64,000 nucleotides of DNA from positions 4,272-68,271 of the forward strand of contig JALHNX010000003.1 in assembly GCA_022843305.1 (NCBI GenBank), given 5' to 3'. Every line of letters starts with the position of its first letter. Positions within the stretch are counted from its first letter, which is position 1. Under the pieces are notes generated by a model. The model ran no database searches. It worked only from the letters and a program-made list of their open reading frames with translations, and was not told the DNA's origin. Shown piece by piece: positions 33,094 through 46,736 of the stretch. This DNA is from Pyrinomonadaceae bacterium. GTDB taxonomy: Bacteria; Acidobacteriota; Blastocatellia; Pyrinomonadales; Pyrinomonadaceae. A program made the position numbers and the translations under genes.

Positions 33094-34446
33094 ATGAAAA
33101 ATCTATTCCGTTTGACGTTTCTTTTCAGCACGTTGTTAATGTCTTTAAGTTTTGCTTTTGCCCAAAATAAATCTAACGAACCGCTTCCGAAAATGCCGAA
33201 ACTTCTTTCACAGCGCGAGCAGGCGGAGGTGCGCGAGATGTGGCTCGGAAAACGGCTCGACACGCTGCTTTTGCCGATGATGCGAAAGCATAATGTTTCG
33301 ATGTGGATTGTTGTCAACGAAGAATTTAACAGCGATCCGGCGACGGAATATCTGGTGCCTCCGATGCCGATTGTCGGAAGCCGCGATTTTTTTATTTTTG
33401 TTGACACAGGCGAAAAAAAATTGGAAAAGATTGCGATTGTCCGTTATGCCGAAGAACGCCTGAAAAATCATTACGAGATGATAAGCGTTTCGCGTGATAA
33501 ATTGGGCGAAACTCTGCGCTCGACAATTGAGAAATACAATCCGAAAACAATTGCTTTGAACATCGGCGGAACGCGCGGACAGCAAAACGGTCTTTCACAC
33601 GCTTCGTATAAAATGCTGGCGGAAACTTTGGGTGCGGATGCGGAGAAAAAATTCGTTTCGGCGGCAAATTTTCTGACCGAATTTTTCGATACACGCATTG
33701 CGGAAGAACTCGAACATTACCGCACGGCGGTTCTGGTAACGGATATTTTGACGCGCCGTGCATTTTCAAACGAAGTTATTATACCGGGAAAAACAACTGT
33801 CGGCGATGTTCGTTGGTGGTTGATTCAGCAAGTCAATAATTTAGGTTTGACGATTTGGTTTCAGCCCGATTTGCGCGTTCAAAGACAAGCAAAATCAACC
33901 GCTGTGAATCAGCAATTTTTGTCGGTTGCCGATGAATCAACGGTTTTGGAACGCGGCGATTTGATTCACGTTGATTTCGGTTTGAACTATATGGGACTTT
34001 CAACCGATTGGCAGAAACACGCTTATATTCTGAAAAAAGGCGAGCGCGATGCGCCGCAAGGTTTGAAAAACGCGCTAAAAAATACGAATCGTTTGCAAGA
34101 CGTTCTCTTCGGCATTGCGCGTGTCGGAATGACCGGCGCAGAAGTTTACGACGCGACGATGGCGCAGATGAAAAAGGAAAATATCGAAGCGATGATTTAT
34201 TCGCATCCGATCGGCACACACGGACACGGACTCGGTGCTTCGATTGATTTCCGCCGCGCCATCGGCGTTTCGCCCGATAGAATCCGGCTCGATTCATATA
34301 TGTCAATTGAATTGAATACTTCGACTGTTATTCCCGAATGGAACAATCAAAAAGTAACGATTATGGCTGAAGACGATGCGTTTATGACCGAAAAAGGCTA
34401 CGAATTTTTCCGCCCGCGCCAGACCGAATTTTATTTGATCAGGTAA
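33094..34446 (+). CDS. Secreted M24-family metallopeptidase (Xaa-Pro peptidase-like)
   Basis: ATG at 33094 gives the signal [24 protein letters not shown]. Pita-bread motifs [20 protein letters not shown] and MAEDDAF. Confidence 0.85.
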
Positions 34447-34447
34447 A

Positions 34448-34560
34448 GGAACGCCGTCATCCTGACGGCTAAGGTCGTGTAAACGACGTATAAAATTTGA
34501 ATATTATAAACGCTTGTATGAACGCTTGGGCGTTCATTGCCGTCAGGATGACGGCGTTCC
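34448..34560. repeat. Palindromic intergenic element, family B copy 1 (22-nt terminal inverted repeats)
   Basis: GGAACGCCGTCATCCTGACGGC (34448-34469) and GCCGTCAGGATGACGGCGTTCC (34539-34560) are perfect complements. Internal small hairpins are present. The second copy is at 45765-45895. Confidence 0.85.
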
Positions 34561-35831: not shown

Positions 35832-35900
35832 CCACGAAACACACAAAATATACAAAAATTATTATTCTGACTTTTTCGTTTCTTTCGTGTGTTTCGTGGG
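35832..35900. repeat. Palindromic intergenic element, family A copy 1
   Basis: CCACGAAACACACAAAATATACAAAAA...TTTTTCGTTTCTTTCGTGTGTTTCGTGGG, directly after the moeA stop. Confidence 0.8.
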
Positions 35901-36686: not shown

Positions 36687-36765
36687 CCCACGAAACACAC
36701 GAAAGATACGAAAATAAGACTAAAGATTGCTTTGATTTTTTGTTTATTTCGTGTGTTTCGTGGGC
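36687..36765. repeat. Palindromic intergenic element, family A copy 2
   Basis: GCCCACGAAACACACGAAA (36687-36705) and TTTCGTGTGTTTCGTGGGC (36747-36765) are perfect 19-nt arms. Confidence 0.85.
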
Positions 36766-44518: not shown

Positions 44519-44591
44519 GCCCACGAAACACACGAAAAATACGAAATAATTTTTGACTTTATTTTTCGTTTCTTTCGTGTGTTTCGTGGGC
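44519..44591. repeat. Palindromic intergenic element, family A copy 3
   Basis: GCCCACGAAACACACGAAAAATACGAAA...TTTCGTTTCTTTCGTGTGTTTCGTGGGC. It starts 6 nt after the uvrA stop and ends 10 nt before the next ATG. Confidence 0.85.
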
Positions 44592-44601
44592 AAAAATAAA
44601 T

Positions 44602-45723
44602 ATGGATTTAGAAACCATCAAAACACCGTCGCTGATCGTTGATTTTCAAAGAATGAAACGCAATGCCGGGCAAATTACAGCTCGCGCCAAAGCGTTAAAT
44701 GTCGCTTTGCGTCCGCACGTTAAAACGCATCGCTGTCTTGAGATTGCGCGGCTTCAAACCGAAAACAACTTCGGCGGAATTATGGTTTCGACGCTTTCGG
44801 AAGCGCATTTTTTCGCTGAAAACGGGTTTTCGGATATAACTTACGGTGTGCCAATCGAGCGCGGAAAATTTGCGGAAGTAATTGCGATTTCCAAAACTAT
44901 TGAACGTTTTGCAGTTTTGACGACGGACGCGGAAACGATTGAAGGATTAAACAACGCGGCGAAACACGAAAACGCGAAACTCGGTGTTTTTCTGAAAGTT
45001 GATGTCGGTTATCATCGCTGCGGAGTCGAACCGCACACGAACGAAGCGTTTGAAATTCCCCGAAAAATCAGCGATTCGACAAACCTCGATTTCGCCGGAA
45101 TTCTGACACACGCCGGACATTCCTATCACGCCGACACGCCCGAAAAACTGCTTGCGGTCGCGCAAGAAGAAAGAAATAAAATGCGCGATCTGGCGGAAGA
45201 ACTTCGCCGAAAAGGAGTTGAAGTTCCAACCGTCAGCATCGGTTCAACGCCGACGATGAGCGCGATTGACAACACGGAAGGCATCACCGAACTGCGCTGC
45301 GGAAACTATATTTTTTACGACGCTTTTCAGGCGACTTTGGGAAGCTGTAATGTTTCCGATTGCGCTTTAACCGTTCTCGCGGCGGTCGTTCACCGGGATT
45401 CGACGCGCCGAAAAATCGTCGTTGACGCAGGCGCGGTCGCCCTTTCCAAAGATCGCGGCGCGGTCGAATTCGACGCGCATTGCGGTTATGGGCGCGTTTA
45501 CGATTTGGCGGGAAACGATTTAGCTTTGCGCGTCGGTTCGCTTTCGCAGGAACACGGCGAGATTTTTGTTGAAGATGAAAAGATTTTTAATAGTTTAAAA
45601 GTCGGCTCGCGCGTTCGAATCTTAGCAAATCATTCTTGTTTAACTGCCTTGCAGCATTCGCATTATCACATTCTCAACGGCGGAAAAATCGTTGACCGCT
45701 GGGAAATCAATCGCGGTTGGTAA
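44602..45723 (+). CDS. PLP-dependent D-threonine aldolase / D-serine dehydratase-like (DSD1 family, alanine-racemase fold)
   Basis: TPSLIVDFQRMKRN, the PLP-lysine context LRPHVKTHRC, and the C-terminal SQEHG...ANHSCLT. Confidence 0.8.
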   Translation: MDLETIKTPSLIVDFQRMKRNAGQITARAKALNVALRPHVKTHRCLEIARLQTENNFGGIMVSTLSEAHFFAENGFSDITYGVPIERGKFAEVIAISKTIERFAVLTTDAETIEGLNNAAKHENAKLGVFLKVDVGYHRCGVEPHTNEAFEIPRKISDSTNLDFAGILTHAGHSYHADTPEKLLAVAQEERNKMRDLAEELRRKGVEVPTVSIGSTPTMSAIDNTEGITELRCGNYIFYDAFQATLGSCNVSDCALTVLAAVVHRDSTRRKIVVDAGAVALSKDRGAVEFDAHCGYGRVYDLAGNDLALRVGSLSQEHGEIFVEDEKIFNSLKVGSRVRILANHSCLTALQHSHYHILNGGKIVDRWEINRGW

Positions 45724-45734
45724 AGAGCTGAAAA

Positions 45735-45916
45735 CGTGAGTATTGGATAAGAAATTTGTCTGACGGAACGCCGTCATCTTGACGGCACACGCCGCGCCGA
45801 GCGGCGTAAAAGCGTTTCATTCAACTTAAAACTTGAAATTAGAGCGAGGATTTTAGCGTTTTTCAAACGCTGTGCCGTCAAGATGACGGCGTTCCTTGCT
45901 TATCCAATACTGACGT
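45735..45916. mobile_element. MITE-like element: 17-bp terminal inverted repeats enclosing family B copy 2, flanked by a 9-bp direct repeat
   Basis: Outer TIRs CGTGAGTATTGGATAAG (45735-45751) and CTTATCCAATACTGACG (45899-45915). Inner arms GGAACGCCGTCATCTTGACGGCACA (45765-45789) and TGTGCCGTCAAGATGACGGCGTTCC (45871-45895). Flanking AGCTGAAAA at 45726-45734 and 45917-45925. No ORF inside. Confidence 0.7.
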
Positions 45917-45927
45917 AGCTGAAAAGT

Positions 45928-46413
45928 TTATTCTCCCGCTTTTTGTTTAATTAATTCGATTATTTCATCCGACAGCCAAAGTCTTTCCTTCTGAACTCTG
46001 GTTAATGTTTCGGAAACTGACCCGATTAAACCTTTTTGTTTAGCTAAAATTAATGCGCCGCCGGTTCCCAAAAACGGAATTTTCAGAACCTTAGCGCATT
46101 TTCCGGCGGCAAAATCATCAAGCATGACAACTGAATCTGAACTTGCCCGCGCGAGATTAAGGACGGCTGATTCACCATCACCGAGATTATAACTTTTGAC
46201 GGTTTCGTCTGAATTTTCAACTAAAATTTGTTTAAAAGTAATGAGTAAAGGAAGTTTTTTTCTGGCAGTATCGTATTTTCTTCCTGCTAAAACTTCTTGC
46301 CAAACGGCATCAGGAACAAGAACTTCTTCAAAGAGTTCGGACAGAATATGTTCTAAATCGCTTTTCAGCAGAATAATTAAAGGCGACGAATCAACGATAA
46401 TTTTCTTAACCAA
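45928..46413 (-). CDS. DUF3368-family PIN-like toxin candidate
   Basis: KKIIVDSSPLIILLKSDLEHIL...VLVPDAVWQEV fits the DUF3368/PIN-like pattern. It overlaps the upstream small gene by 8 nt. Confidence 0.7.
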   Translation of the reverse strand: MVKKIIVDSSPLIILLKSDLEHILSELFEEVLVPDAVWQEVLAGRKYDTARKKLPLLITFKQILVENSDETVKSYNLGDGESAVLNLARASSDSVVMLDDFAAGKCAKVLKIPFLGTGGALILAKQKGLIGSVSETLTRVQKERLWLSDEIIELIKQKAGE

Positions 46414-46657
46414 GACTCAATTCCTCGTCCAATTCTTCTTTCGAATACTGCCACGCCGAAACACGATAGCGGGATAAAACATCAAGAAATTCGGCGCGTG
46501 AAAGTCCGAGAATTTCCGCCGCTTTCCCCTGCGAAAGAATGCCGAGTTCAAACCATTTGACAACCGCCGCGACCAATATTTCGCGTCCCAATTTATCCTG
46601 CGTCGTCCCCAAAGCCGTCAACGCCGTTTCCGGTAAATCTATTGATGCAGTATTCAT
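46406..46657 (-). CDS. UPF0175-family antitoxin candidate
   Basis: ATG at 46657. LGILSQGKAAEILGLSRAEFLDVLSRYRVS is the typical UPF0175 C-terminal HTH. Confidence 0.7.
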   Translation of the reverse strand: MNTASIDLPETALTALGTTQDKLGREILVAAVVKWFELGILSQGKAAEILGLSRAEFLDVLSRYRVSAWQYSKEELDEELSLG

Positions 46658-46736
46658 ATTTTTATCCTTTCGCAATCTTGATAACAAATCGAATCGCCGA
46701 CCGGACTCTTAAATTAAATCAAAGCCGAAAAACTTG

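Follow-up and report, generated by a model that had tools for sequence, protein, structure and literature searches.

Within the window, as we term the whole stretch of 64,000 nucleotides of Pyrinomonadaceae DNA, from a soil acidobacterium, that was analysed, a 183-bp non-coding element lies at positions 45734-45916, on contig C3. Judged from its sequence and from that of its relatives, it is a genuine miniature transposon in which a REP/REPIN-type hairpin repeat is placed inside IS982-family end sequences, and the comparative data make it very probable that it is a MITE of an IS982-family IS, moved in trans, the body of which is a captured REPIN. Because IS982 ends are combined here with a REPIN body, the element can be described as a two-layer chimera. 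It is ordinary selfish DNA, and its two-layer build is unusual.

A DDE transposase acting in trans would recognise the two 18-nt ends, ACGT[G/C]AGTATTGGATAAG, and a staggered cut would be made within the 13 nt that separate two convergent stop codons, followed by insertion of the element; repair of the stagger would then produce the 8-bp duplication AGCTGAAA. The body is a REPIN and not an IS remnant, with two inverted REP hairpins and two inner hairpins, a type of repeat that is copied by RAYT. One REPIN variant would have acquired IS982 ends around it, after which the IS982 transposase would have multiplied it as cargo.

Structure of the element and of its insertion site

The boundaries of the element, which runs from ACGT to ACGT, were set against 20 copies of its family, all starting with ACGT or a near variant. 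On both sides it is bordered by the 8-bp perfect direct repeat AGCTGAAA (45726-45733 and 45917-45924). An earlier note on this DNA had described a flanking repeat of 9 bp, and the 9-mer AGCTGAAAA is indeed found at 45726-45734 and again at 45917-45925; the duplication itself is however 8 bp long, its ninth base (A) being ambiguous because it is common to the first base of the element. The 17-bp TIRs and the length of ~182 bp given in that note were likewise found in place, with one mismatch, and were refined to 18 nt and 183 bp: the outer inverted repeat (45734-45751 versus 45899-45916) has 1 mismatch in 18 and was extended by the repeat tool to 21 nt at 90%. Inside the TIRs, the two family B arms that had been pointed out form an inner inverted repeat of 25 nt (45765-45789 versus 45871-45895) that is 100% complementary, with an 81-nt spacer. 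The absence of coding capacity and the position in a convergent gap also stood up to examination, as no ORF of at least 50 aa was found in 45724-45927 and the element fills the gap between the stops of the DSD1-like and DUF3368 genes, neither of which is disrupted. A scan of the whole window against Rfam at gathering thresholds returned no match. The toxin-antitoxin pair beside the element is incidental. The features of the element and its neighbours are listed in Table 1.

Table 1. Features of the 183-bp element and of the adjoining genes (window coordinates).
Feature	Position	Strand	Remarks
D-serine-dehydratase-like gene (Ala_racemase_N + D-ser_dehydrat)	44602..45723	+	intact; stop 2 nt before the duplication
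Target-site duplication AGCTGAAA, left	45726..45733	.	exact direct repeat; single copy in relatives
Left TIR ACGTGAGTATTGGATAAG, IS982-type end	45734..45751	+	15/18 match to the TIR found in two IS982-family ISs of G011
13-nt spacer AAATTTGTCTGAC, TIR to core	45752..45764	+	same or very similar in other copies, also where the shell contains other REP arms
Left family B REP arm	45765..45789	+	GGAACGC, then self-complementary GCCGTCA/TGACGGC hairpin; 7-bp stem
Interior hairpin X, ACGCCGC/GCGGCGT stem	45789..45807	+	predicted fold; interior type common to all shell copies
Interior hairpin Y, AGCGTTT/AAACGCT stem	45855..45871	+	predicted fold; also in the REPINs flanking the C60 RAYT paralogue
Right family B REP arm	45871..45895	-	inverted-repeat partner of the left arm
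3-nt spacer TTG	45896..45898	.	short side of the asymmetric shell (13 nt versus 3 nt)
Right TIR, inward reading ACGTCAGTATTGGATAAG	45899..45916	-	17/18 identical to the TIR of the metagenomic IS982-family IS L154
Target-site duplication AGCTGAAA, right	45917..45924	.	exact direct repeat; single copy in relatives
DUF3368 (PIN-like) gene	45928..46413	-	intact; stop 3 nt after the duplication
UPF0175 gene	46406..46687	-	overlaps the upstream end of the DUF3368 gene

A comparison with relatives for an empty site, which the earlier note had proposed, was conducted on 40 related genomes. Orthologues of the left-hand gene, with 79-86% nucleotide identity and the same stop position, were recovered from 11 genomes of the same genus (designated below by G numbers), and the neighbour on the DUF3368 side is kept in three of these, G010, G002 and G015. 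All three have ~12 nt between the two stops, lack the element and contain the target region once. When the element and one AGCTGAAA were deleted in silico from the window and the remaining sequence was aligned to the congeners, it was collinear with G010 (TAA-AGA-GCTGAAAA-GTTTATTC in the former versus TAA-AGA-TTGAGAAA-TTTATTC in the latter). The window copy was most likely inserted after the split from the species with empty sites.

A different palindromic repeat, family A (GCCCACGAAACACACGAAA…), was also observed in the window at 35832-35900, 36687-36765 and 44519-44591, directly after three stop codons. One of the family A copies lies 11 nt upstream of the start of the left neighbour gene.

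Copy family and target duplications

The genome assembly to which the window belongs (5.72 Mb, 322 contigs, 94.8% complete) was searched for further copies of the TIR and contains 20 full long-form copies of 172-185 bp in addition to partial ones. The ends of all 20 conform to ACGT[C/G]A[A/G]T(ATT or TCG)GGATAAG, and the layout of the copies is fixed and asymmetric (TIR, 3-nt spacer, core, 13-nt AT-rich spacer, TIR), occurring in either orientation. A family B core is present in nearly all of them, a copy on C272 having other arms. With the boundaries fixed at the ACGT ends, perfect flanking direct repeats of 6-8 bp were found at 11 of the 20 copies, four of which have 8-bp repeats, including TTTGGCTA on C2 and AGCTGAAA in the window. 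Six further long forms have a 6-7 bp repeat with one mismatch, and repeats of at least 6 bp with at most one mismatch flank 16 of the 20.

The remaining count, nine copies out of 20 with a perfect repeat of only 0-2 bp, and the composition of the flanks, which at 82% A+T yield more chance matches, would favour a reading in which the flanking repeat of 8-9 bp is coincidental and the element is a static palindromic repeat, spread by recombination or inherited. However, when each left flank was paired with the right flanks of other copies, a control that keeps the same A+T content, only 5.5% of the mismatched flanks reached 6 bp and none of 20000 permutations reached 11 copies; furthermore, a perfect 8-bp match was seen in none of 380 mismatched left/right flank pairs. 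The repeat in the window is not AT-only, and the probability of an exact 8-mer arising by chance at fixed flanking positions is ~1.5e-5. The single-target empty sites of the three congeners and an insertion nested in another copy with its own duplication, described below, also argue against coincidence, which we regard as extremely improbable. The interpretation of the earlier note, a MITE with a target-site duplication, is thus upheld by the repeats, their controls and the empty sites.

The usual target is AT-rich with TA at both ends (19 of 20 copies), AGCTGAAA being the sole target among the 20 that is not of the TA...TA type, at the two positions abutting the element ends. Copies in congeners have repeats of 6, 7, 8 and 9 bp (9 bp in one copy), and the TIR was matched 73 times in G011, 22 times in G013 and 13 times in G006. 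In G011, a copy with a family B core is inserted inside a MITE that has the same shell and different REP arms (C171:41650-42008, L035), and this nested copy has a 7-bp duplication of its own, TAAAATA. The nested insertion is direct evidence of activity in G011. Contigs bearing the TIR were found among Pyrinomonadaceae, Pyrinomonadales and Acidobacteriota MAGs, and single TIR matches in other phyla look like chance.

Two additional observations concern the arrangement of copies. Dozens of contigs of G011 and G013 begin or end ~120-140 bp inside the MITE (for example G011 C20:122-139 and G013 C60:120-137), and the MITE often accounts for breaks in the assembly of these MAGs. At C255:5246-5619, three family B arms in the same orientation, 106 bp apart, are followed by a reverse arm and one IS982-type TIR; this array at a shell edge forms a BIME-like tandem cluster.

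Probable IS982-family transposase partners

Members of the IS982 family, among them IS982, ISAba825, ISAba4 and IS1187, have ends starting with AC and generate duplications of 3-9 bp. Since the element also has AC ends and a short duplication of variable length, we searched for an IS982-family transposase. Two genes scoring far above the NF033520 cut-off were found in G011, in ISs of 987 and 990 bp with perfect 18-nt TIRs, ACGTCAGTTCGGGATAAG. With the transposase ORF of G011, NF033520 gives 265 bits (cut-off 130) and PF13612 gives 233 bits. The TIR of these ISs is identical at 17 of 18 positions to the 'TCG' subtype of MITE in the present genome and at 15 of 18 to the window copy. Scanning metagenomes with the transposase yielded 48 loci, 27 of which have both TIRs; these 27 ISs are 960-1006 bp long, with ends ACGT[C/G]AGTTCG[G/A]GATAAG or close variants (ACGT... 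or ACCT...), and ten of them are bordered by perfect 6-8 bp TA...TA duplications. The best TIR match to the window copy was obtained with L154, a metagenome IS whose left TIR, ACGTCAGTTTTGGATAAG, agrees with the right TIR of the window copy at 17 of 18 positions and whose transposase scores 271 bits on NF033520. The partner ISs as a set reach 265, 266 and 271 bits against the cut-off of 130. The earlier note had assumed a transposase acting in trans and absent from the window, and had suggested looking for its gene between such TIRs and for other TIR copies in the genome; the ~990-bp IS982-family ISs of G011 and of metagenomes, which have ACGTCAGTTCGGGATAAG or a close variant at their ends, agree with this assumption, as do the 20 full copies and the tens of further TIR matches in congeners. 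The similarity between IS and MITE ends at the TIR, and the MITE is therefore not a simple deletion derivative.

In the present assembly, a search for an IS982-family transposase with NF033520 returned only a 37-bit fragment (C53:478-777), and a blastn search for the IS body gave nothing beyond the TIRs. The lack of an IS982 transposase in the assembly suggests that the window copy is probably a stranded fossil, currently immobile, with the reservation that absence from the genome is not proven by an assembly that is 94.8% complete and in 322 contigs, the genomes used being all draft or metagenome-assembled. The sequence ACAAAAATATTTGATAAG (C53, C165) was considered as an IS end and rejected: it has just two occurrences, lacks an inverted partner and is unlinked to the weak fragment at C53:478-777. 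For an autonomous element with the exact TIR subtype of the window copy, no TIR pairs 0.7-3 kb apart were seen in 18 genomes of the genus.

A different IS982-family IS was observed in the closed genome G017, where ten copies with ends ACCTTGTGTGCGAC… are present on C1 (for example at 209563-210288), and the TIR of the MITE was not matched in G017. The genus thus harbours several circulating IS982 lineages. For the clade related to the MITE, which comes from Acidobacteriota-rich soils, no name was found so far as searched.

The REPIN core and its RAYT gene

The family B arm motif GGAACGCCGTCATCYTGACGGC is represented by 111 arms in the genome at up to 3 mismatches, which form 47 inverted doublets, mostly of 119-133 bp, as well as solo arms. 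Outside full shells, 33 family B pairs were counted, ~25 of which are truly naked after allowing for missed TIRs, and no flanking duplications were found when these were sought at the 33 unshelled pairs. One naked REPIN is the second family B copy of the window, a 113-bp unit at 34448-34560 without an IS982-type shell or duplication. It starts 2 nt after a stop (TAA, 34444-34446), with a likely ATG 6 nt past its end, and it is closely fitted into what appears to be an operon junction.

Ten Y1_Tnp matches were detected in the genome. Among the corresponding genes, a RAYT ORF of 197 aa on C243 (L007 1264-1857), which reaches 94 bits on NF047646 (cut-off 80) and contains both an HUH motif (HIH) and the tyrosine motif RYIENNP, is surrounded by family B elements at 1124-1254, 1840-1861, 1875-2004 and 2075-2116: a full family B doublet ends 9 nt ahead of the gene start, a solo arm contains the stop codon, and another full doublet and a half element follow downstream. 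These REPINs have no outer repeats. A RAYT paralogue on C60, with 60% identity, is likewise flanked by doublets, the arms of which have a different hairpin part (GGAGCGCAGGCTGCCAGCCTGC) and a common inner hairpin, AGCGTTT..AAACGCT. The features found on C243 and C60 are those that define REPIN-RAYT systems (PMC3116915, PMC3337134), and the core at 45765-45895 is a REPIN with its own RAYT gene on another contig. RAYT-like genes have already been reported in Acidobacteria, and two REP super-families have been distinguished by a terminal tag, GTAG or CGTC (PMC3733652); the family B arm begins with GGAACGC, and CGTC is present inside the stem.

At least six further Y1_Tnp (RAYT-like) genes were observed, each flanked by its own high-copy palindromic repeat; further Y1_Tnp loci are at C4:7003-7773, C78:11250-12178, C143:8475-9853, C60:1934-2798, C8:14298-14488, C25:23539-24028 and C168:10848-11433. 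The repeat GTCAGAACCGCCTGCGGTAGCGGGCGGGTA is an example of those at the further RAYT-like genes, with 14-mers occurring up to 87 times. The genome runs many separate RAYT-REP systems. In G017, two family B elements 1.2 kb apart were suspected to flank a RAYT gene, and they do not. A C/T-G/A difference between the arms of the two window copies was also considered as a compensatory pair and discarded, as the base sits in the REP hairpin loop; this arm position 15 (window 45779 and 45881) is concordant in only 28 of 45 doublets, and is therefore weak evidence for selection on long-range pairing.

Relation between shell and core across the genus

All shell copies of this genome have one interior type, consisting of hairpin X (ACGYCGC/GCGRCGT) and hairpin Y, and naked copies have several different interiors. 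Such a pattern fits the enclosure of one REPIN variant by IS982 ends and its subsequent amplification as a unit. The distribution of arms within the genus also supports a putative spread as cargo. In G011, where two IS982 genes are present and no RAYT homologue was found at E<=1e-20, at least 48 of ~90 family B arms lie directly beside a TIR; the corresponding number is 26 for the 104 arms counted in the present genome (G000), in which RAYT is present and no IS982 genes were found. The 20 arms of G005 (no RAYT homologue at E<=1e-20) and the 12 arms of G009 (RAYT homologues at 50-54% identity) include none beside a TIR. A RAYT orthologue with at least 86% identity was found only in G000 and G002, the latter having 11 arms and a gene with a stop. 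The MITE shell explains the arms of G011 and gives no explanation for those of G005.

These data also bear on whether the whole 183-bp unit could be a long form of REPIN moved by RAYT, an HUH tyrosine transposase, and not by an IS982 transposase. It could be argued for this reading that the core has the same arms as the elements around the RAYT gene, and that RAYT is encoded in this genome, in which an IS982 transposase was not found. However, transposition of the HUH/IS200 type makes no target duplication, and duplications are seen at the long forms and not at the unshelled family B pairs; the REPINs that flank RAYT lack the outer repeats, and these repeats match the ends of IS982-family ISs that were found independently, via their transposase. 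In G011, moreover, the shell-embedded arms occur without a RAYT homologue at the above threshold, and the many contig breaks inside the element suggest near-identical copies. Mobilisation of the entire unit by RAYT is thus very unlikely, and the evidence points to an IS982-family transposase as the enzyme that moved the shell.

The arms found inside the shell are not always of family B. Arms of the C60 type occur in shells in the C272 copy of this genome (C272:2750-2931) and in G006, arms of the GGAGCGCGGACGGCTCGTCCGC type occur in shells of G006 and G013, and the hybrid copy at C177:2063-2234 pairs a GGAGCGCGGACGGCTCGTCCGC arm with an arm of family B. The shells with other arms keep the same TIRs, spacers and inner hairpins. 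Other and hybrid arms within a conserved shell suggest that arms are replaced, whether by recombination, gene conversion or RAYT action. A further interpretation would make the IS982 shell a REPIN shuttle, driven by a DDE transposase and independent of RAYT, in which arms are swapped as modules among REP types, including those of other RAYT paralogues; the element would then be a non-autonomous one served by two unrelated transposase classes, the swapping taking place via gene conversion or RAYT-mediated replacement at a fixed docking site. It fits the situation in G011 because ~90 arms are present there without a RAYT homologue, and we put it forward tentatively, as a reading somewhat less likely to be right than wrong.

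A few shells of G006 and G010 have an AT-rich interior and no REP. Two of these, G006 C107:3719-3899 (L029) and G010 C579:16406-16587 (L037), were observed to have the same IS982-type TIRs and duplications of 7-8 bp around an AT-rich interior that is unrelated and contains an inverted repeat of its own (…CTGAAATAAT…). Cargo other than a REPIN can also occupy the shell.

Predicted fold and possible effect on the host

The element is predicted to fold into a near-perfect 183-nt hairpin of -96.8 kcal/mol (z = -13), and a crude frame scan placed ten of the 20 long forms between reading frames that converge. Both features could be taken to mean that the host retains the element for a function, either blocking transcription from both directions or stabilising mRNA 3' ends between convergent genes, its mobility being secondary, and REPs have been reported to affect termination and mRNA stability (PMC3733652). 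Nevertheless, the stability of the fold is accounted for by the fact that any palindromic transposon folds in this way by construction, and the bias towards 3' ends can follow from the preference for AT-rich targets. A scan of 45500-46200 for consensus promoters and terminators returned nothing, with no terminator-like U tract, there is no Rfam match, and the element is missing from congeners that have the same gene pair. Retention for a host function, which would be compatible with the MITE reading, is on these grounds highly improbable, and an effect on the transcription of the neighbouring genes is possible but unsupported.

Comparison with known systems

REPINs have been described as vertically inherited repeats that depend on a RAYT present in single copy. 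With IS982 ends around it, a REPIN would escape this dependency and could burst wherever an IS982 transposase is present, and would constitute a natural test of the control of REPIN populations. The family is tied to a concrete enzyme pair, an IS982 DDE transposase and RAYT, which offers an anchor for the annotation of hairpin repeats in soil Acidobacteriota, and the MITE helps to explain contig breaks in MAGs. In itself, the element represents yet another selfish repeat family.

A MITE of IS982 origin is already known, namely MITECca01 of Cardinium, derived from ISCca4 (PMC9769881). Like MITECca01 (~240 bp), the present element is short and non-coding, occurs in many copies, has inverted repeats that closely resemble the ends of an IS982-family IS, and its movement is attributed to a parental transposase acting in trans. 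MITECca01 keeps short subterminal stretches of its parent and has intact parents in the same genome (PMC9769881), whereas here no similarity extends past the 18-nt TIR, a REPIN forms the body, and no parent IS is present in the assembly, the parents having been found in a congener and in metagenomes. The partner ISs resemble other members of the IS982 family in their size of ~1 kb, their single DDE transposase ORF (NF033520, PF13612), their AC ends and their short variable duplications; the window element differs from these ISs in having no transposase.

As in the REPIN-RAYT systems of Bertels and Rainey (PMC3116915, PMC3337134), two inverted REP hairpins are separated by a spacer and form ~50 doublets per genome, they flank a short HUH/Y1 transposase gene that passes the NCBI REP_Tyr_transpos model, and the unshelled copies are without target duplication. 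The systems described are mainly proteobacterial, and the host here is a member of the Pyrinomonadaceae (Acidobacteriota) with several RAYT paralogues that have their own REP types. Unlike REPINs as defined, a subset of the present copies is enclosed in the ends of a DDE transposon and flanked by duplications. A TIR shell around unrelated internal DNA is also known from mosaic MITEs, namely a MITE of P. gingivalis containing a minisatellite (PMC4596501) and Tn3-derived TIMEs forming mosaic elements (PMC4133298); in apparent contrast to these, the passenger here is itself a mobile repeat with a dedicated transposase.
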